A DNA stretch of 64,000 nt from Eledone cirrhosa (GCA_964016885.1 OZ024762.1:12276001-12340000), one strand, 5' to 3'; positions 50,576 through 64,000 are shown, counted from the first letter of the stretch. The notes: generated from the letters alone by a model not told the origin. Numbers and translations are program-made.

Positions 50576-51501
50576 CTTTTGTGGGCACGACAAGATGATT
50601 TTAATTGGTGGCACTCCTGCGACAATTTTCTTTATACATTAAAAGACATTGTACATGACAAAAGTACATTACTAGAAATCCAATATGTTATAAAATATAT
50701 AGGATGGGTTTGGAGGGTCTCAGTATGTTATAAAATATATAGGATGGGTTGCAGGGTCTCAATATGTAAACAATGACTAATCCTAATTTAAAAAAAAAAA
50801 TCAATGGAGACAACCAATTCTCCTCACCCACCCCTGCTTCTTCAAGCCCTTCCCTCATTATTTGGGATCCCCAAGAGTTCATAAACTTCACAGAAAGATG
50901 CAACATGAAGATGTAATACTATAGGCTGTCTGTAAAACTAAACTTTCCATTGTTGAATCTCTTAAGTATCATCTTTATCTGACATTCTTGTTTCTTGACA
51001 TAAAAGAGTTCTTTTTTTTCACTTCAGATAACTTCATCAATATTTACCATCTTTTAAAGACTCCAGGAAGAGATCATCATCACAATTTAACGTCTATTTT
51101 TCCATGCTTCAATGAGTTAGACGGGTCACCCATGTCATAAGACAAGTCTGGCCAGTTAGCCACGCTGTACCTTACTCAGATCGAACTGTACTTTGGCTGG
51201 GATTTTTACAGCAGGATGCTCTTCCTAACATCAACCTCATTTATAGTGTTTTATATTGAACAAATATAACAATATGGTGGAATTACTGTCAAATATTCTG
51301 AACTGGGGTTAATAACAACATATCACTTCTCGTTGTCTGGAATGTGTACAGGTGTGAAAATATCACTGATATCTGAGGGTACTATCGTCATGCTGGTGTG
51401 AAAATATCACTGTGATATCTGGGGTAAATATCGTCATACAGGTGTGAAATTACTACTGTGATATCTGAGGTAAAGTGTACTCTGGGAGTTGTGGTTTAAC
51501 T

Positions 51502-52566
51502 ATGGACAAACAGAGTCATACACAAGAGAGACCATATCAGTGTGATATCTGTAGTAAATCCTTTTCTGGAAGACAGGACTTAACTGTACACATACGCATT
51601 CATACAGAAGAGAAACCATATCAGTGTGATATCTGTGGTAAATCTTTCACTGCAAATAGTAAATTAACTAGACACAAACGAACCCATACAGGAGAAAAAC
51701 CATATCCCTGTGATATATGTGGTAAATTATTTGGGAGTAGTGACTTAACTACTCACAAACGTATTCATACAGGAGAGAAACCATTTCACTGTGATATCTG
51801 TGGTAAATCATTCTCTCATAGAAAAAGCTTAGTTGGACACACGCTCATTCATACAGGAGAGAAACCATATCAATGTGATGTCTGTGGTAAATCATTTTCT
51901 TGGAGTAGTGCCTTAACTGGACACATACGCATTCATACTGGAGAGAAGCCATACCGCTGTGATATCTGTGGTAAATCATTCTCTCAAAATGGTGACTTAA
52001 CTAAACACACACCCATTCATACAGGAGAGAAACCATTTCACTGTGGTGTCTGTGGTAAATCCTTTGCCTGGAGTAGTGCCTTAACTAAGCACAGACGTGT
52101 TCATACAGGAGAAAAACCATATCAATGTGATATCTGCAGTAAATCATTCTCTCAAAGTGGTGACTTAACAAAACACAAACGTGTTCATACAGGAGAGAAG
52201 CCATTTAAATGTGATGTCTGTGGTAAATCATTTTATGGTGGAAATGACTTAACTAAACACAAACATATTCATACAAAAGAGAAACCATTTCATTGTGATA
52301 TCTGTGGTAAATCTTTTTCCTGGAATTGTGACTTAAATACTCACAAACGCACTCATACAGGAGAGGAACCATTTCACTGTGATGTCTGTGGTAAATCTTT
52401 TTCTTGGAGTTGTGACTTAACTTCTCACAAACGTAGTCATACAGGGGAGAAGCCATTTCACTGTGAAGTCTGTGGTAAATCATTCTCTCACAGCGGTAGC
52501 TTAACTAGACACAAACATAGGAGCCATGGGCCTCCTGAAAAACGACCTGACCAAGATCCCGTGTAA
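51502..52566 (+). CDS. Tandem C2H2 zinc-finger protein (12 fingers, no KRAB/SCAN), single coding exon
   Basis: ORF with 12 C-x2-C-x12-H-x3-H units (finger 3 is x11, finger 12 ends H-x4-H) joined by TGEKP(Y/F) linkers. First ATG at 51502, stop TAA at 52566. Confidence 0.93.
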   Translation: MDKQSHTQERPYQCDICSKSFSGRQDLTVHIRIHTEEKPYQCDICGKSFTANSKLTRHKRTHTGEKPYPCDICGKLFGSSDLTTHKRIHTGEKPFHCDICGKSFSHRKSLVGHTLIHTGEKPYQCDVCGKSFSWSSALTGHIRIHTGEKPYRCDICGKSFSQNGDLTKHTPIHTGEKPFHCGVCGKSFAWSSALTKHRRVHTGEKPYQCDICSKSFSQSGDLTKHKRVHTGEKPFKCDVCGKSFYGGNDLTKHKHIHTKEKPFHCDICGKSFSWNCDLNTHKRTHTGEEPFHCDVCGKSFSWSCDLTSHKRSHTGEKPFHCEVCGKSFSHSGSLTRHKHRSHGPPEKRPDQDPV

Positions 52567-53941
52567 GCCTGTGAGATACAAACTGCAGCACTGAAGGGTA
52601 CAATGCAACCTCTAGTACTTTGCATAGTTTTACTGGTTGGATAACCCTCCTATTACCAACAACTTCGCAGTGTGGACTACATATATAACTTGCAACAGTT
52701 AAGGAAGAACACATTGTTCATATCGTTTTTGCATTTGAAAAGATGGGAATAACCCTGAAATATACTGGGTAAGAAAAACATTCCTTTGCTTTGTCATACT
52801 TTACCCTTTATATATTTCTACTGTACCAGCTTTCTGAAACTCATCAGTCATTTATAACTCATTTGACAAGAGGGTAATGGAACCATTACTTTGTTTTGTC
52901 ATCCTTTGCCCTTTATATATATTTCTATCACATTGTACCGGCTGTCTCACATACATCAGTCATTTATATATATATTTGTAAAACTAAACATTCTCAGATC
53001 TTTTATACCATCCCAAATACAGGAATAAGGGATGATTCCATATATTTTGCATGGACACATTGCAACTGCAGACACCTAATAAATGTCCTTAAACCCTTTA
53101 GTATTTACTATTATATTTTCACAGTAAAGGCTTTACCTCACATAATATTGAATCTACGAGATTTTGATATTAGTTATTTTAAGAACAATACTTTAACATA
53201 AGTATGAGCAGAAAGAGGCGAGAGAATCTGGTCGAATATGGCCAGTTTATTCCTTATAATTATTTCGATGGTAATCACAGCATCTTTCTTAATGTTGTTA
53301 TACTGAATCTCCATCGTAACTACACACTACGAATGTAAAGAGCTTTCTCCTGTTGTAAACCAAATCAACTTTTACTGAACACAATATATATAGAGATAGA
53401 TATTTATACAATATTTTGTAGACATTTTTTATATACACACAATATATATGTATACTTATTGGAGTTTGCTGTTGTTTCTTAGAAGAAATGAAAAAGCAAA
53501 AGTTCAGTTTATTTAATTTATTCTTTTATTTCACATTTTCGTCTGTAGATAAGACAGTTTATTTACATTCCTTCGAAGATAGCAGTAGTATTTTCCTGTG
53601 TAGAGAAGGTTTAGTTCTGGTAAAGAAGAAAATCAGAAGTATATATGTAAGAGGGCCGGCTGACCAAATGGAAAGAAACAATGCAGTTCCTCAATGACTA
53701 TATATCCTGTTATATATATACAAAATACTAGCAGTTCCTCAATGACTATATACCCTGTTATATATGTATAAAATACTAGCAGTTCCTCAATATCCTGTTA
53801 TATTTATATATATAGAAACGGAAAGAAAGCGAGATAACACTCGGAATATGTCGTGTTATCTCGCTTTCTTTCCGTTTCTTTTTTTTTTAAAAAGAAGGAA
53901 AATGTTTAGCTATAAGTATGCCTATTTGACTCTGTAGAATT

Positions 53942-54106
53942 GCGGCTTGTGCGTGGCGCTGCACGTAGCGTTTCTGGCTTCGCTGTCGTACTTCGGTATG
54001 GCATGACCACTCGATCGTGTCTGAAGTTCGAATCGTTGCGGGGTCGGCCGGGACCACAGCAGGCTGGCTTTATGCTGGCCTGCTCTCCCGCCTCGCATGA
54101 GTTTTT
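53942..54106 (+). ncRNA. Candidate structured Pol III small RNA, copy 1 (unassigned family)
   Basis: TATAAGTA at 53911. GC-rich island whose 5' GGCTTGTGCG pairs with 3' CGCATGAGTT. cUUCGg hairpin at 53984-54003, B-box-like GTTCGAATC at 54026-54034, 11-bp hairpin at 54058-54084, TTTTT at 54102-54106. Conserved in a second copy. Confidence 0.6.
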
Positions 54107-54164
54107 GCCAAACAATTTGACGAGAGTTATCTCCCCTTAATTTGAATTATTTGCCCTTTGTTTA

Positions 54165-54282
54165 CATTGAACTACTTCCGGTTTGTGGAACTCTTCTTCC
54201 TTTGTATTGAAGAAATAGCATCGTTTTATTTACTCTGGGACTATTAACGATATTGGTTTGGATTTTACATTCGTGTAAAGAG
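54165..54282 (+). promoter_or_regulatory. ETS-motif Pol II promoter and non-coding exon (copy 1)
   Basis: CTACTTCCGGTTT at 54172-54184, identical to 48666-48678. Donor AG|GTATGT at 54283. Confidence 0.5.
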
Positions 54283-57200
54283 GTATGTAAAGTTTTATTT
54301 GCCGTTTATATGTGAAAACATTGCTAAATATACACTCACAGATATTATTGACATACAAGAGTACGTTTTTCTCTTTTTGGAAACGTAAATACATTTGTAT
54401 AAACACTCTTCGTTATATATATATTCATCTATAGATGTAAATTCATTCTAACCATATTCCATATACCAGAATTTTAGGGACACACGAAGCTACATTTATA
54501 TATACGTTGTTATATCTTCTAAAGATCATAACCAAGCCCTCTCAACACCATATACATTTCTATAACCTTAATACTGGAAGAATAAAGATACCTTGCATTT
54601 ATATATAAATGCTCTCACTTAGAAACATACATAAAGTTCTTCCTTGTAAAGAATGCAATGTTTTGTTTGCCGTGTCCTCTTTCAGAATCCATAGACACAA
54701 GCTACATTTATTTACGTAAACTAAAGGTACATCTTTTAAGAATTGTAACTACAATTTCTCTGTTCACTTCTAAGAAACGAAAGTAAACCCTCTTTCTGAC
54801 ACAGAGCTACATTAATGAATACTTGTAAGAAACTAAACCATACATCTACATTTTATTATCTTTCACATCTAACAAAACACGGTAGCTTCTCTCCAACCTC
54901 CCTAGACTTCTTCATTAGGTCACTGAAGCTACCTCTTGTATTACTAATGTTATCAAGACTCCTTTTATTAGCCTCACATCTACTCCAATAAATACAAAAC
55001 TAAACCTTTATCACCCATTTTATAATCCTAACAACACTAGGCTTTGAAGAAGAAAGGTAAATAAAAGAATAAACCATACTTTTTCTTTGTTGCTTTATTA
55101 TCTCATTCATGTTTATATATATATATATACACACACACACCTATTCTAAGAAAGTAAACATACTTTTATATAGTCCTTCTCATACAGAAGAAGTCTTACT
55201 GTCTAGATAAATACTTCTTAATAGAAACAATTAAGCCATCTCTATATATATAAACCTTTATACAGGAAAATAAATCTCCTTTCATTGTTCTCAGAAGCAG
55301 TAAGAATTCCCTCCATTATATATATAATGTTGAGATACTATATATTATAGAATACACACGTGTAAGGAACTGTGGAATACATACACACATTAACCCCCCT
55401 AGATTCTGAGCCATCTCTATTCACTACATACCTTGTGTAACAAAGTACTGTTACCCCTGTAGCTGTGTATATACATACATTCGTATTTATAAATGTATCT
55501 CTCCCTATATATACTACATTGAAGAAAGATGCTTGCCTATACATAAACACTTATGTGTATATAAGAAGCCGTATTCTATAGAAAACCTGACCTCCAGACG
55601 TACCTGTAGCTCCGAGAAATTAGACAGTTCTTTCCCCATTACATACATCAATACCTTCCTATCTCTAGACGTGTATACTTACTACAATACTCTATTATAT
55701 AGGAGAATAAACAGTAAGAATTCCATCCGTTATATATATAATGTCGAGATACTGTATTTCTCTCTATATATACACACTTCATTGAAGAAAGATACTTCTC
55801 TAGACGTACTTGTTGTTCTGAGAAGTTAAACTACAGAGTATCTAGGATACTGTATATATATGCATAAATCTCTCTATATATACACACAATAATCTATACG
55901 TATATATCTAAAATTACTCTATATACACAATTTATTTTCTTTCATTTATTATTACTTCGCCATCTGCGATCACAACCCTTACTGTGAACCCCTGTCTAAC
56001 CAGAAAACCTCTATTTACTACACCCTCCATTCCATTCCATTACGTTGTTCCCTACTTTATATAGATTTATAAGAAACTAACCAACTGTATTTTTATAGAG
56101 TGCAGACACACTATTCTATTTATCTACTTACCTTTTCTGCTCATGATACATAAACACATACTTCTGTCTGCACACAATATTGATGTTAGAGCTGTGTTTT
56201 TATTAATATCTTCTTTGTTTCTTTCCAGATATGTTGAAGATCTCTGTCAGCTCACCACAGTGTATAATATATACACACACAGATTAAAGAAATAAAAACA
56301 AAATGTAGTGTTTATTGACTTATATTATATGTACTCCCCTAATAAATGTAATTACGATATACACAGCTAGTGGAAAGTCTAACTTCCTAGAGCTACATTT
56401 TATAATATGAATGTGTATATATAACACAGCAAGTTACTGTATATGATGTATGTAGAGGTTTGATTTCCTACGGTAATATAAAACTTAAACAACCATGTAT
56501 TCTATATAATACAGTTATCTCTGCCAAGATGAGGTGTTTAATTACAGCAAAGAATATAAATATCTCTTGCCCTATATACACAGAGTATGTGTATATGATA
56601 CTGGGTAGTGAAGAATGTTTAAGAGAACATTCAGTTTCTTAGAGCTACAAGTACAGTAAATGAAATACTTAGTGTATATATAATACAGTATTCTAGTGTA
56701 AAGGATTAATTTCTTACAGTAATATAACCTTATACAACTATGTATTCTATATAATACAGTAAGAGAAGGTATATAGCAGTTTAGTTACTTAGAGCTATGT
56801 TTATTGCCTTATATATACACATATTATGTGTTTAACAGAATATTCAGTTTCTTACTGCTACAAGTACAGTAAAGAAGATACTTACTGTATATATAATACA
56901 GTATTTTAGTAAATTTCTATATATATCTCATACTTAAGATATAAGAAGGTAATGTTTGTATTCTATTGAGTTCAGTCTCCTAATATATTAACTTCAATAG
57001 AAGTATGTAGCTCTCTCTAGTATCTAGAGAATGGTTTTATTATATACCTGTATGTAAAGGTTTGATTTCTTACAGTTATGTATTCTATATAATAATTATC
57101 TCAAAAGAGGGTATATAGCAGTTTAATTACTTAGAGCTACAAGTACAGTCAAGAAGATGTATTGTATATTAGTGTTTTGGTATCCTATAATGGTATATAC

Positions 57201-57354
57201 ACAACTTAGAGCTAAATTTATAATGTGAATATATATATATATGAGAGAAGATATTAATGTAACTACGTATGTAAAGGTTTAACTTCTTAGAGCTACATTT
57301 TTATAGAAGAATATATCTTCTTGTGGTAAGTATACATGTGTAGAGATAGAAAGA

Positions 57355-60300
57355 TATGTATGTATGTATACATACGTATGTATATATACATACATATGTA
57401 TATATAAACATACATATGTATGCATACATACGTATGTATGCATACATATGTATATATACATACATGCGTATGTATGAATACATACGTACGTATATATATA
57501 TATACATATGTATGTATGTATACATATGTATGTATGTATACATATGTATATATACATACGTATGTATGTATACATACATATGTATGTATGTATATATACA
57601 TACATACCTATGTATGCATACATACGTATGTATATATATATATACATATGTATATACATACATACGTATGTATATATATATATACATATGTATATATATA
57701 TACATACGTATGTATGCATACATACGTATGTATATATATATATACATATGTATATATATATACATACGTATGTATGTATACATACGCATGTATGTATATA
57801 TATACATACATACGTATGTATATACATACATACGTATGTATATATATACATACGTACGTATATATGCATACATACGTATGTATATATATACATATGTATG
57901 TATACATACATATGTATATATGCATACGTATGTATGCATATATACGTACGTATGTATATATGCATACGTATGTATATATATATATACATACATACGTATA
58001 TATATACATACGTATGTATATATACATACGTATGTATATATATACGTATGTATATATACATATATATGTATGTATATATACATACATATGTATGTATATA
58101 TACATACATATGTATGTATATATACATACGTATGTGTATATATACATGCGTATGTATGAATACATACGTACGTATATATATATACATACATACGTATGTA
58201 TGCATATATATGTATGTATATATACATACGTATGTATGTATACATACGCATGTATGTATACATACATACGTATGTATATATACATACGTATGTATGTATA
58301 TATACATACGTATGTATATATTCATACGTATGTATATATACATACGTATGTATATATATACGTATGTATATATACATATATATGTATGTATATATACATA
58401 CATATGTATGTATATATACATACATATGTATGTATATATACATGCGTATGTATGAATACATACGTACGTATATATATATACATACATACGTATGTATGCA
58501 TATATATGTATGTATATATACATACGTATGTATATATACATACGTATGTATATATACATACGTATGTATATATATATATATATATACATACGTATGTATA
58601 TACATACATACGTATGTATATATATACATACGTATGAATATATACATACATACCTATGTATGCATACATACGTATGTATGTATATACATACGTATGTATG
58701 TATATATATACATACATATGTATATATATACATACATATGTATGTATATATATACATACGTATGTATGTATATATACATACGTACATATACATACATACG
58801 TATGTATGTATATATACATACGTATGTATATATTCATACGTATGTATGTATATACATACGTATGTATGTATATACATACGTATGTATGTATATATATACA
58901 TACGTATGTATATATATACATACTTATGTATGTATATATACATACGTATGTATATATATACATACGTATGTATGTATATATACATACATACGTATGTATA
59001 TATACATACGTATGTATGTATACATACGCATGTATGTATACATACATGCGTATGTATACATACATACTTATGTATATATGCATATATACATACGTATGTA
59101 TGTATACATACGCATGTATGTATACATACGTATGTATATATACATACGTACGTATATATGCATACATACGTATGTATATATATATGCGTATGTATGTATA
59201 CATATGTATGTATACATACGTATGTATGCATACATAGGTATGTATGCATACATACCTATGTATGCATACATACGTATGTATATATTCATACGTATGTATA
59301 TATATACATACGTATGTATATATATACATACATATGTATGTATATATACATACATATGTATGTATATATACATACGTATGTGTATATATATATATACATA
59401 CGTATGTATATATACGTACGTATGTATATATACGTACGTATGTATATATACATACGTATGTATACATACATACGTATGTATATATATACATACGTATGTA
59501 TGTATATATACATACTTACGTATGTATATATATATACATACATATGTATATATATACATACGTATGTATGTATACATACGTATGTATATATACATACGTA
59601 CGTATATATACATACGTATGTATATATATATATACACATACGTATGTATTTATACATACATACGTATATATACATACGTATGTATGTATATATACATACG
59701 TATGTATGTATATATACATACGTACGTATGTATATATACATACATACATATGTATATATACATACGTATGTATGTATACATACGTATGTATGTATACATA
59801 CGCATGTATGTATGCATACATACTTATGTATATATGCATATATACGTACGTATGTATATATACATACGTATGTATGCATACATACGTATGTATATATATA
59901 CATACGTATGTATGTATACATACGTATGTATGTATATATACATACGTACGTATATATGCATACATACGTATGTATATATATATGCATACATATACATATG
60001 TATGTATACATACGTATGTATGCATACATACGTATGTATGCATATGTACGTATGTATACATACGTATGTATATATTCATACGTATGTATATATATACATA
60101 CGTATGTATATATATACATACATATGTATGTATATATACATACATATGTATGTATAAATACATACGTATGTGTATATATATATACATACGTATGTATATA
60201 TACGTACGTATGTATATATATACATATGTATATATACATACATACTTATATATGTATACATACGTATGTATATATACATACCCACGTATGTATTTATACA

Positions 60301-61078
60301 TACATATGTATATATACATACGTATGTATATATACATACGTATGTATATATATACATACGTATGTATACATACATATGTATGCATACGTATGTATATATA
60401 CGTACGTATGTATGTATATATACATACATACATATATATACGTATGTATGTATATGTATACATACGTATGTATATGTACATACATACTTATATATGTATA
60501 CATACGTATGTATATATATATACCTACGTATGTATACATACATACATATGTATGTATATACATACGTATGTATATATACATACGTATGTATATATACATA
60601 CGTATGTATGTATACATACATGCGTATGTATGTATACATAGGTATGCATATATATGTATGCATACATACGTATGTATATATACATACATACGTATGTATA
60701 TATATACATACATACGTATGTATATATATACATACATACATGTATGTATATACATACGTATGTATATATACATACGTATGTATATATACATACATACGTA
60801 TATATACATACGTACGTATATATATACATGCGTATGTATACATACATGCGTATGTATGCATACATACATGCGTATGTATATATATATATACATACCTACG
60901 TATGTATACATACATACGTATGTATGTATACACATACGTATGTATATATATACACATATGTATGTATATGTACATACATATGTATGTATATATACATGTG
61001 TATGTATATATACATATGTATGTATATATATATACATGTGTATGTATATATACATATGTATGTATATACATACATACA
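57355..61078. repeat. 3.7-kb self-complementary TA/CATA/TACG satellite
   Basis: Built from palindromic words (CATACGTATG, CATATG, TATATA, TGCA). Almost strictly alternating purine/pyrimidine. Confidence 0.97.
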
Positions 61079-62738
61079 TCTCTAATTCCTTAGCTATATT
61101 TATATAATACAGTAGTCTAGAGATATAAGGGTATTAATATGTATGTAGGTTGTCTTTATATCTGTGTAGTGTAACTTCTAAATCTACAATGAAGATATGC
61201 TTTATATACACAAAAGTGTTTATATGGTGAGTATGCCTGTCTAGAGAACAGGGTAACTGCGTACATATGGTTCTACATACTGTACTCTATTGAACACAAC
61301 TTCAATATATAATGGAGGTACTTCTTCCAATATAGAGAAGAAGGTATATTATTGACATGAAGTAAGCTTTGTGTGTCATATTGATTACAGTTTTTCTATA
61401 TATGTGTGTATGTAAAGAACACTAAATTTCTTTGTATTTATACAGTTAGCCCTCTTGCTTCTTAGGAAGCATGTACACGTTCTACTATGAGATGCTTATA
61501 CACAAGTAGATGAACAATAGTAGTAGTTTCCTAAGAGACGTATGTGTAGTATCTAGCGAGGATGTATTGATGTGTATGTACAGATCAAAACCTCTTATCT
61601 TATATATGTAGGATGTTCACTTCCAGGTTTCTACATACACGTGCATAATATAAAGAGACACACACAATGTGGGTTTAGATATATTCTATAGAATACAGTT
61701 TCTTATATACAGACATGTCTACATTGATGTTATTTACCTGTATATAGAGATGGCTTGTTTCTAATAGGTGTGTATCTAGGAAATAATTTATATAATATGA
61801 ATCTAGTATACAGTGACAGAAGGTTTTTGTCTTCCTACAGTGTAAGAGGTGTCTAGTGTGTGTATATATATACAGGGAGTAAATAATAAGGCAACAAAGG
61901 AAAATACTGGTTTATTCTTTTATTTCACAATTTATTTACCTTTCTTCTTGAGATAGGGTTGTAGTAGTCTCCAGGTCTGGTGCTGTTCTTTAGGAATATA
62001 AAATAGGTTAGTTGTGTATATATAAAGGTTTAGTTTTGTATCTAGTGAAGAACGTTTATATATGGATGATGTAGCTATCAAGCAGGTGAGGATGCTAGAA
62101 GTAGTAATAAGGAGTCTTACGGCAGAGTAATAGAGCTACCATGCTTCGTTAGATATAAAATATAACTGTATGGTTTAGCTTCTATATTCATATGTCTAGA
62201 GAAGGTTTAGTTTCATGTCTATTATTCCAGTATGAACAAGTTTGTATATTGCGCCTCATAAGTATCTGTTATGATAGAAGGGAGACCGTTTATATATGAA
62301 TATAGCTTCATGTGTACGTATGTCCCCAGGATTCTTCCTCTACATGGTTTAGAATAAATTTACGGCTAATACATAAATATGCCTGAAGTGTTTGTGTATT
62401 TACGTGAAAAAGTGTCTTCTTGTATATAGAATATCTGTGTGTGTATTCAGGTATATACAGAAGATAAAATGTGTATAGAGAGGAAGCTTGGTTATATTTC
62501 CTTACAAGTATGTATATAGTATCGAGAGACGATTTAGTTGTAACATGTTAGAAGAGGTGTGTATATATATACAGATCATGGTTAGTTTTGTTTCATAATA
62601 GAGGAGGGTAACATGTATGTTTAGTTAGAAGAGGTAGCTGCGTGTATATATTTAGTTTTGTTTCTTTAAAAGACATGGCAACTTACTTTTGTGTCTCAAC
62701 AATGTGTGTGTATATACGGCAAATAAAACTTTACATAC

Positions 62739-62850
62739 CTCTTTACACGAACGTAAAATCCAAGTAAATAGAATGTTACCACTTCAATACACTGAAAAGA
62801 AATGACAACAAAGTAAGAAGAGTTCCACAAACCGGAAGTAGTTCAATGTA
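62739..62850 (-). promoter_or_regulatory. ETS-motif Pol II promoter and non-coding exon (copy 2)
   Basis: Reverse-strand CTACTTCCGGTTT at 62829-62841. Donor AG|GTATGT at 62738. Confidence 0.5.
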
Positions 62851-62906
62851 AACAAAGGGCAAATAATTCAAATTAGGGGGAGATAACTCTCGTCAAATTG
62901 TTTGGC

Positions 62907-63060
62907 AAAAACTCATGCGAGGGGGAGAGCAGGCCAGCCTGCTGTGGTCCCGGCCGACTCCCGCAACGATTCGAACTTCAGACACGATCGAGTGGTCATG
63001 CCATACCGAAGTACGACAGCGAAGCCAGAAACGCTACGTGCAGCGCCACGCACAAGCCGC
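62907..63060 (-). ncRNA. Candidate structured Pol III small RNA, copy 2
   Basis: Reverse complement of copy 1, with TATA at 63084-63091 and T5 at 62907-62911. The main difference is an 11-nt deletion that shortens but keeps the AGCAGG/CCTGCT hairpin. Confidence 0.6.
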
Positions 63061-64000
63061 AATTCTACAGAGTCAAATAGTCATACTTATAGCTAAACAT
63101 TTTCCTTCTTTTTTAAAAAAGAAAAGAAACGGAAAGAAAGCAAGATAACACGACATATTCCGAGTGTTATCTCGTTTTCTTTCCGTTTCTCTTTCTATAT
63201 AAATATAACGGGATATATAGCCATTAAGGAACTGCTAGTGTTTTGTACATATATAACGGGATATACACGAATAGAAGCCAGGGAATATGTAGTAAGGGGT
63301 TGACTTATATAGGGAGTCAATAGTTTGACCATTTTCGCCAACTTCAAATTCTACATAAATAAGGTTCGCATTTTTGCCCACTTCTCAGACATAAGATAGG
63401 GAGGAGGGTCACCTTATATTCGAGTATTTTGTACATCTATTCTTGTTAGACTAGACCGGCATCATCATTGGTAGAGCACACCAGGTGCTACTGCGTTGAA
63501 CGAGACTAAGGCTGTGATGGTCCTCAGGGCACTGCTGTCAATTGTCTTTGTGAGAGGCCACGTTTCTGCTCCATAGAGGAGAAGACATGCATCTTTTCAG
63601 AACAATTAATATGTAGGTAACATAGCCTTAGAGAGATCTGTATTTGTAATAGTTAATATCGATTTGGGTAATCTTAAGACCATGATTCCAATCATCAATA
63701 TATGTATTGATTAAACCTAAATATAGTATATAAAGAAGTGGATTTTAAAATATGCAATGATAGTGTCGAGAGAAGGCTTAGTTAGTTACTTCTAACAATG
63801 TACCACTATGAATAAGACAGAAGGCGGTGTATGTAGATAGAATGTTTAGTTTTCCTGAGTATGAAGGGGTTTTAGTTATTATTCTTAGTAAAAAGATGGT
63901 TATATTATAAATATACGTCTCTAACATTCCTCCTGTATATGAAGGGTAGTGAAATATATTCTTGTGTCTCAGGAATAACTACGTGTTTATCGATGAATTT

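Follow-up and report, generated by a model that had tools for sequence, protein, structure and literature searches.

The window analyzed here, a 64,000-nt stretch of the Eledone cirrhosa genome (GCA_964016885.1 OZ024762.1:12276001-12340000), contains two arms that face each other about 9 kb apart in inverted orientation, as a sequence-only reading of this DNA had described (Table 1). An OXCT1 exon places the host among octopods. From its outer edge inward, each arm carries a 48-bp repeat, a hairpin, a candidate Pol III RNA gene, a 13-mer that we take to be an ETS-type motif, a putative exon 1 and the start of a putative intron. We refer to this arrangement as the cassette and to its two occurrences as copy 1 and copy 2. 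The 13-mer, which the earlier reading had placed about 65 nt downstream of the RNA and also at the putative promoter of a neighboring C2H2 zinc-finger (ZNF) gene, was found at these three sites and nowhere else, and conserved AG/GTATGT donors were found in both copies. Twice, in inverted orientation, what appears to be a Pol III-type structured RNA gene is followed directly by an ETS motif and a conserved donor.

Table 1. Features of the inverted pair and of related units, in window coordinates
Feature	Position	Strand	Remarks
Unit B, resembling exon 1 and intron start but decayed	45732-45872	+	Donor lost; upstream RNA gene absent
Unit A	46050-46480	-	Same donor and intron start (46310/46309); z 12.7
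13-mer at putative promoter of neighboring C2H2 gene	48666-48678	+	ORF 51502-52566
48-bp tandem repeat, outer homology edge, copy 1	53683-53813	+	
Inverted homology, copy 1/copy 2	53749-54310/63265-62711		87.8% identity over 575 columns
Perfect 27-bp hairpin, 12-nt loop, copy 1	53814-53879		-44.3 kcal/mol, z -11.8
TATA-like box	53911-53916	+	-31 from putative start G53942
Vault-like candidate Pol III RNA gene, copy 1	53942-54106	+	160 nt plus T5 from putative start
Box-A-like site	53975-53985	+	2 mismatches
TACTTCG	53989-53995	+	7/8 bases of vault-RNA motif placed after box A
Box B core GTTCGAATC	54026-54034	+	Exact
11-bp 3′ hairpin	54058-54084	+	Shortened in copy 2 by 11-nt indel
T5 candidate Pol III terminator	54102-54106	+	
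ETS-type 13-mer, copy 1	54172-54184	+	65 nt after T5 run
Putative non-coding exon 1, copy 1	54185-54282	+	Nominal start; ends AG/GTATGT (54282/54283)
Putative intron, copy 1	54283-56228	+	C-rich on +; strong acceptor at end
Putative terminal exon, copy 1	56229-56316		Opposed poly(A) signals (+56291-56296, -56316-56311)
Self-complementary purine/pyrimidine-alternating satellite	57354-61077		Inside putative intron of copy 2
Putative intron start, copy 2	61078-62738	-	Runs on through satellite to ~56320
Putative exon 1, copy 2	62739-62828	-	Donor 62739/62738
ETS-type 13-mer, copy 2	62829-62841	-	
Candidate RNA gene, copy 2	62907-63060	-	149 nt plus tail from putative start
Hairpin, copy 2	63125-63190		One mismatch and one G-U pair
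48-bp repeat, outer edge, copy 2	63193-63265	-	
Unit D, fifth intron start	63828-64000	-	Donor would fall beyond window

Uneven divergence of the inverted arms

The core of the arms is ~98% identical between the copies, and divergence rises in steps from ~2% in the core to 29% in exon 1 (21 substitutions in 72 aligned nt) and ~40% in the intron. The outer 48-bp repeat differs by 8 substitutions in 65 aligned nt. The RNA gene of copy 2 shows 3 indels but no substitutions over the 153 nt aligned with copy 1, compared to 6 substitutions in 222 flanking positions (p 0.085). Intron homology, proposed to extend for ~1.3 kb, is present and diverged but patchy, with blocks at 61-64% identity; it is firm to ~55250 (z 27) and weak to ~55580.

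Substitutions and indels separate the arms, and divergence reaches ~40% in their inner parts, so the pair does not represent an assembly fold-back. The simple inverted duplication first proposed does not account for a 98% identical core beside an intron of ~60% identity, a pattern that requires conversion or module replacement, and the arms have likely been kept near-identical through gene conversion. Identity that is highest in the outer parts, the convergent promoters and the sub-terminal tandem repeats would also suit a 9.5-kb DNA transposon whose terminal inverted repeats have promoters facing inward. We regard this as highly improbable, since none of four tested left ends is flush with a target-site duplication, identity drops again in the outermost 65 nt, no ORF of transposase length was found inside, and the exon and intron stubs are found again in units whose upstream DNA is different. 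The arms lack the combination of sharp ends and target-site duplication expected of such repeats, and we rejected this assignment.

The 27-bp hairpin reported for each copy is perfect in copy 1 but imperfect in copy 2. Perfect local hairpins are common in this DNA, with 9 having arms of at least 18 bp in the window. Rfam miRNA matches to the hairpin, which were the sole results of E-value scans of the cassette, fall far under the gathering threshold (best 31.6 compared to 83 bits), and it has no match in 24,410 characters of the PMC9699675 supplements (file 2 excluded), where miRNA sequences possibly lie outside the text.

A candidate Pol III RNA and its likeness to vault RNA

The candidate RNA gene combines a TATA-like box, an internal box B and a T5 run that exactly closes the terminal stem of the RNA. 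Copy 2 also has the box B core, at 62976; there are 20 occurrences of the B-box pattern across the window, and box A is represented inside the RNA by two-mismatch candidates only (53954, 53966 and 53975). Nowhere in the window is CpG denser than at the two RNA copies.

None of 300 shuffles folded as well as the copy 1 RNA (z -3.8), in which 14 of 63 predicted pairs are G-U, and its sense-antisense energy gap (-22.5 compared to -13.7 +/- 3.9) was reached by 4 of 300. For copy 2, 58 of 300 shuffles folded as well (z -0.86) and 70 of 300 matched the strand asymmetry. As the copy 2 fold is no better than shuffles, much of the copy 1 z-score comes from the one 11-bp hairpin. The 10-bp terminal stem has a pair probability of 0.96 in copy 1 and 0.95 in copy 2, although such a stem likewise arises in 38 and 47 of 300 shuffles. 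The center of the RNA is predicted to take either of two folds that differ little in energy: the vault-register fold reaches -75.0 compared to a minimum of -75.6 kcal/mol, with a pair probability of ~0.33 in copy 1, and its helices have a probability of 0.02-0.21 in copy 2. The two copies are not independent and so yield no covariation support.

One explanation dispenses with a separate RNA: the GC-rich 160 nt would belong to the Pol II promoter as its CpG island, with the B box being either a chance occurrence or a TFIIIC-only insulator site. We consider this unlikely. A CpG-rich island does lie just upstream of the ETS motif, the promoter of the related unit A also has a GC-rich island, the copy 2 fold is not significant and box A is weak; against this stand the TATA-like box at -31, the T5 run closing so probable a stem, the G-U-rich strand asymmetry of copy 1 and the vault motifs in their order.

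Vault RNAs are known to escape homology searches, and a motif and criteria for recognizing them in lophotrochozoans (Lottia, Helobdella and Fasciola) have been published (PMC8824774). The motif TTACTTCG, placed directly 3′ of box A, is represented in the octopus RNA by 7 of 8 bases (the first T is replaced by G), 3 nt after the weak candidate at 53975. The T run, expected at most 150 nt from the motif, begins 113 nt past the motif start, at 54102; the internal box B of vault RNA is present at 54026 in copy 1 as well as in copy 2; and the 5′ and 3′ ends are joined by the 10-bp stem as in the vault panhandle, a stem of this kind also arising in some shuffles.

The octopus and vault RNAs have in common the hybrid promoter of internal box B and upstream TATA-like element (PMC8362101), the panhandle, the T run, a pyrimidine motif ahead of the terminal stem and near-identical copies in a cluster; TACTTCG after a weak box-A-like site is a further possible likeness. 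TACTTCG, which stands in vault order, can pair with the B-box strand. Compared by eye, the Fasciola sequences (PMC8824774 Table S9) likewise show a hairpin in the stretch from box B to the 3′ pyrimidine motif. The octopus RNA differs in having ~25 extra nt in the 5′ arm, with TACTTCG at +48 instead of +20 as in Fasciola vtRNA1; in a copy 1 length that, measured from the putative start, exceeds the published 80-150 nt; in lying 65 nt ahead of a Pol II-type promoter motif; and in the absence of a match to the Rfam Vault model, either at gathering over the whole window or at E up to 10 in four scans.

In 50,000 shuffles with the B box and T run held fixed, TACTTCG arose upstream in 666, TCTCC near the end in 1710 and both together in 25. 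Taken in order, TACTTCG, B box, TCTCC and T run form a descriptor that matched 3 of the 50,000 and, within the window, only the two RNA loci; it is post hoc, having been written after inspection of the sequence, when about ten families had already been considered. Vault RNA is the closest likeness of the candidate, which may belong to that class. Our search of openly accessible papers found no description of a cephalopod vault RNA and no report of an octopus vault protein; Aplysia has four MVP genes.

The promoter, terminator and fold apply equally to a Pol III RNA unrelated to vault RNA, and no Rfam family fits. Such a lineage-specific RNA, spread via segmental duplication, might be snaR-like or a remote derivative of a tRNA, SINE or 7SL gene. 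snaR, a structured RNA moved into promoters by inverted segmental duplication, provides a precedent, and a layout of D, anticodon and variable arms, or a 5′ layout like SRP Alu, can be drawn. We consider this reading possible but rather unlikely, because the vault motifs co-occur beyond chance and the individual sources fit poorly. A cloverleaf folds at -8.5 compared to -28.1 kcal/mol, with T and acceptor stems broken; an Alu-like fold reaches -9.8 compared to -14.4 kcal/mol and lacks the UGU motif; and neither a SINE-type tail nor a third copy of the RNA was found within 64 kb.

Several families were rejected. The SRP/7SL Alu domain has a three-way junction and a UGU motif between helices 3 and 4, where the linker here reads CGUA, and no SRP family matched. 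Neither the cloverleaf nor tRNA models support a tRNA gene or tRNA-derived SINE head: ARAGORN finds one tRNA, at 42310, and none in the cassette, and the 3 tRNA-type Rfam matches at gathering in the whole window all lie outside the cassette. 7SK RNA has a type 3 external promoter (PMC8362101) in contrast to the internal B box seen here, and gave no Rfam match. No match to a 21-nt motif of the RNA turned up among bacterial and archaeal genomes, and blastn of the core against phages returned no match.

Putative orphan exons and the satellite

Of 7 acceptor candidates on the plus strand, the proposed CAG/56229 is the strongest, with pyrimidines at 13 of 14 positions, and AATAAA lies at 56291; between 54200 and 63300 this hexamer is frequent, occurring 10 times on the plus and 15 times on the minus strand. 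In agreement with the earlier description, the cassette contains no coding exon and no zinc-finger remnant. An 18-residue ORF in the putative terminal exon is unlike the N-termini of 5 named octopus ZNFs, the stub peptide scoring 13-18 with no resemblance. Whole-protein ZNF searches gave no octopus proteins and did not place the host; a search by region gave 5 named Octopus proteins among at least 120.

Related exon, donor and intron stubs number five within 19 kb. Unit B aligns with z 6.9 and 6.1 (0 of 200 shuffles), and its upstream DNA with z -0.1. Unit A lies behind a different GC-rich promoter and converges on unit B, both without a coding exon and without the RNA; unit D is identical to unit A at 118 of 181 positions. 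As in coleoid C2H2 expansions (PMC9068888), a single-exon-array C2H2 ORF lies close by, 1.2 kb from copy 1, but the stubs have no alignable counterpart, whether exon, intron, acceptor or N-terminal peptide, in the ZNF sequences compared. The ZNF promoter and the cassette have the 13-mer alone in common (30 of 200 and 22 of 200 shuffles score equally), and no alignment to the cassette was obtained for exon 1, intron 1 and the acceptor of this one ZNF gene (z -0.7 and 2.2 for the intron). The claim of a ZNF-type promoter module with its own Pol III gene is therefore not supported: the RNA is absent from units A and B and from the ZNF promoter, so it is not a standard part of such a module. The stubs are probably debris of gene birth and death beside the C2H2 gene.

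The satellite shows 98.6% purine-pyrimidine alternation, and 85-91% of bases are paired in all four 300-nt folds. The pair had been described as converging around it. Convergence stands, but the satellite is off-center: the G/C skew flips at ~56300, where the opposed AATAAA signals sit (+56291, -56316), which places the satellite within the putative intron of copy 2.

These signals also bear on the proposal that a ZNF-cluster promoter module with a Pol III gene drives convergent lncRNAs forming long, edited dsRNA. Putative donors, an acceptor and poly(A) signals are present, coleoid editing is ubiquitous and targets repeats, introns and UTRs (PMC9068888), and satellite RNA is predicted to fold strongly. 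However, the spliced products would be same-sense, as the first exons are, and the poly(A) signals, opposed and ~20 nt apart at the orientation flip, would limit transcript overlap. The predicted first-exon duplex is fragmented (-32.0 kcal/mol, compared to -62.3 for a read-through fold-back). Long dsRNA would need read-through or the satellite itself, whose RNA, being self-complementary, would give dsRNA alone. With the RNA missing from units A, B and the ZNF promoter, and the ZNF gene sharing the 13-mer only, we find this proposal very improbable.

A possible mechanism and its implications

Our preferred but tentative reading, which we place a little short of even, is that each arm holds a likely Pol III gene for a 150-165-nt panhandle RNA most like vault RNA, fronting a likely orphaned exon and kept by conversion. 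TFIIIC would bind the internal B box and weak A box, and the TATA-like box at -31 would position TFIIIB. Transcription would end at T5, 65 nt ahead of the ETS motif; the RNA ends would pair, and one of the two central folds would join TACTTCG to the B-box strand. The RNA may act in trans like vault RNAs, through TEP1/vault binding or protein riboregulation, and not by antisense pairing. At least five gene-start stubs, none with a coding exon, would make up a local family that includes the ETS site, exon, donor and intron start seen here; the RNA gene may have come to front one lineage of these stubs, as snaR-G did at primate CGB1/2.

In African great apes, snaR-G1 and -G2 are located in the CGB1 and CGB2 promoters (PMC3045588, PMC3337139). 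There, too, a structured Pol III RNA sits in a short duplicon at the proximal promoter of paralogs, twice, by inverted duplication. snaR is Alu-derived, ~117 nt long and ends in oligo-A/oligo-U, and the genes that host it remain coding, whereas the octopus pair has no Alu origin and no coding exon, and its arm divergence points to conversion. We hold it to be quite unlikely that these are new extended cephalopod vault RNA genes, with an extra 5′ hairpin and a two-state center, that were captured in the manner of snaR-G, that TFIIIC and Pol III open or insulate the ETS promoter, and that palindrome conversion preserves them.

Should the RNA not be transcribed, the locus amounts to common duplication debris next to a zinc-finger gene. 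If it is expressed, cephalopods would have their own form of a poorly understood RNA class, one that is hard to find by homology and has been reported in few lophotrochozoans. With a Pol III gene 65 nt ahead of a Pol II promoter motif, the locus would make a compact case for Pol III/Pol II coupling, and the candidate, for which coordinates, predicted ends and two natural variants are given here, could seed a mollusc-wide family model.

Two facing arms of uneven divergence

Self-comparison of the window gave a single strong inverted match, in which copy 1, the plus-strand arm (53749-54310), aligns with copy 2, the facing minus-strand arm (63265-62711), at 87.8% identity over 575 columns. The inverted pair of cassettes proposed from a sequence-only reading is thus borne out, and its hairpin, 13-mer, donors, acceptor, and AATAAA were all recovered where it had placed them. 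Proceeding inward along the arms, substitutions number 8/65 in the 48-bp repeat, 2/66 in the hairpin, 2/62 in the spacer between hairpin and candidate RNA gene, 0/153 (plus three indels) in the RNA itself, 2/94 in the following spacer and the 13-mer that we take to be an ETS site, 21/72 in exon 1, and 0/26 in the intron start. Conversion between the arms, or else a recent replacement of the upstream module, best accounts for this rise from ~2% to ~40% divergence. That the RNA has no substitutions (p 0.085 versus the flanks) is a hint of selection, not a demonstration. An assembly fold-back is unlikely because the arms differ from each other and so do their interiors.

The pair had also been credited with homologous but diverged introns. 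Past the aligned arms this homology proved patchy (61-64%), being strong over 54828-55248 (z 27) and weak from there on. The cassette's intron DNA contains degenerate internal repeats with a ~250-nt period (56340-57330 and 54650), and the donor region recurs in decayed form at 54650.

A candidate RNA with vault-like motifs

The candidate RNA of copy 1 would run from G53942 to a T5 at 54102-54106. A TATA-like box lies at −31 and the B-box core at +85; A-box candidates are limited to 2-mismatch sites, scored against Pol III box patterns that we assume to be the consensus. Its predicted fold of −75.6 kcal/mol (z −3.8) was reached by 0/300 shuffles, and that of the copy 2 RNA, −59.9 kcal/mol (z −0.86), by 58/300. 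Of the two alleles, copy 1 is thus predicted to fold better; copy 2 could be in decay or could represent the form preceding an 11-nt gain. Readings of the RNA as a tRNA or as SRP-Alu were rejected on energy and key motifs.

Vault RNAs, as PMC8824774 describes them, are 80-150-nt Pol III panhandles in which box A is followed by TTACTTCG, a poorly conserved box B, and a T-run; among the sequences of that paper, TTACTTCG is present in 4/5 and TCTCC lies close to the 3′ end in 3/5. The candidate RNA has TACTTCG (53989), box B, TCTCC (54084), and T5 in vault order. TACTTCG and TCTCC occurred together in 25/50000 shuffles that kept box B and T-run in place, and a vault descriptor matched the two RNA copies and nothing else in the window, although the true odds are weaker than these counts because the descriptor was post hoc. 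In an alternative fold, 0.6 kcal/mol less stable than the minimum, ACTTCGG is paired to the strand leading into box B, while the bases following box B take up the box-A-like strand; the probability of this vault-register fold is ~0.33 for copy 1 and 0.02-0.21 for copy 2.

Several features count against membership: the copy 1 candidate exceeds the 80-150-nt range, its motif lies at +48, box A is weak, and Rfam scans matched no family even at E 10. Vault RNAs are described as conserving little except their boxes, having hybrid promoters, and evading homology search (PMC7916137, PMC8362101, PMC7058938). We therefore refer to the RNA as vault-like and do not assign it as a vault RNA member. In the mechanism we propose, TFIIIC would occupy box B and the TATA-like box would position TFIIIB, giving a 150-165-nt Pol III product that would end 65 nt upstream of the ETS motif and would work in trans.

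Gene-start stubs and surrounding genes

The cassette had been viewed as a ZNF promoter module with a built-in Pol III gene, which the comparisons do not support. The 13-mer is all that it has in common with the neighboring C2H2 gene (the ZNF gene), a likeness equalled by 30/200 and 22/200 shuffles, and the upstream DNA, intron 1, and acceptor of that gene did not align to the cassette. The 18-residue ORF opening copy 1's last exon scored 13-18 against five named octopus ZNF N-termini. Three related gene-start stubs, units A, B, and D, are listed in the table. Units B and A (45732-46480) form a second convergent pair, separated by ~450 nt that contain no coding exon; the hairpin and RNA are absent from both (z −0.1 and 0.8), and word-6 blastn found no third copy in the window. 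With no RNA in units A and B and only the 13-mer in the ZNF gene, the sequence ties the RNA to just one lineage of stubs. The stubs make up a multi-copy gene-start family that is possibly ZNF-derived.

Unit A lies behind a GC-rich promoter of its own, in which GC-box (Sp1) and YY1-like motifs occur. The unit D donor would fall just outside the window.

Features of the window
Feature	Position	Strand	Remarks
OXCT1 gene (succinyl-CoA:3-ketoacid CoA transferase)	20526-38721	+	13 blocks matching O. vulgaris protein
Short ORF	26213-26644	+	similar to 3′ end of a LINE, presumably RTE-type
tRNA-Phe(GAA) gene	42310-42382	+	60.6 bits; downstream 85 nt without T-run
Long fold-back, near-perfect	44297-44650		98-bp perfect arm, 44354-44451 / 44511-44608
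Unit B	45732-45872	+	decayed exon-1 relative without donor; matched by 0/200 shuffles
Unit A	46310	−	donor and intron start again; z 12.7
C2H2 ORF	51502-52566
Unit D	63828-64000	−	fifth intron-start stub; 65% identical to unit A

One OXCT1 exon is 89% identical to the Octopus vulgaris protein, 86% to Argonauta, and 82% to a cuttlefish protein, which makes the host an octopod. Five named Octopus proteins align to the C2H2 ORF at 54-63%, and decayed zinc-finger-like repeats lie directly upstream of its first ATG (51320-51500); coleoid C2H2 expansions are described in PMC9068888. The tRNA-Phe gene is possibly inactive. tRNA-type heads carrying box A, box B, or both occur at 13339, 24368, 28105, 38915, and 43102-43138, most of them preceding a common downstream repeat, as a SINE family.

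Local fold-backs are frequent in window DNA. The long one may be MITE-like or a template-switch product, and other perfect inverted pairs of 18-43 bp lie at 18543-18687, 43086-43154, 42148-42221, 12899-12982, 9518-9572, and 22187-22262. In all, the window contains nine perfect inverted pairs of at least 18 bp, the cassette hairpin among them, so that an origin of this hairpin by local template switch is plausible.

Double-stranded RNA, the satellite, and the overall reading

Convergent lncRNAs forming long dsRNA, as had been suggested, find no support in the exons: both first exons have the same sense, and their predicted duplex is fragmented at −32.0 kcal/mol (a figure without a control) versus −62.3 kcal/mol for the read-through fold-back of the exons alone. 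Long dsRNA would require 9-kb read-through beyond several poly(A) signals, or the satellite (57354-61077) as its source. The satellite is 98.6% purine/pyrimidine-alternating, and its 300-nt folds were 85-91% paired in 4/4 tests, versus 49-66% for intron DNA. RNA editing is described as a general feature of repeats within coleoid introns and UTRs (PMC9068888), so it would not single out this locus. Nor is the pair arranged around the satellite, which is not central; instead, strand skew flips at ~56300, where AATAAA on the plus strand (56291) opposes AATAAA on the minus strand (56316).

Judged by listings and abstract openings, literature searches gave no paper on a cephalopod vault RNA or on the arrangement seen here. 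The closest known arrangement is snaR-G, in which a 0.7-kb duplicon is reported to have taken over the CGB proximal promoter before an inverted duplication (PMC3045588, PMC3337139). The earlier interpretation is supported in part, for an inverted pair of candidate Pol III genes, without the ZNF module or the dsRNA from convergent lncRNAs. The locus is plausibly a vault-like Pol III gene pair that lies within an inverted duplication and adjoins orphan gene starts.
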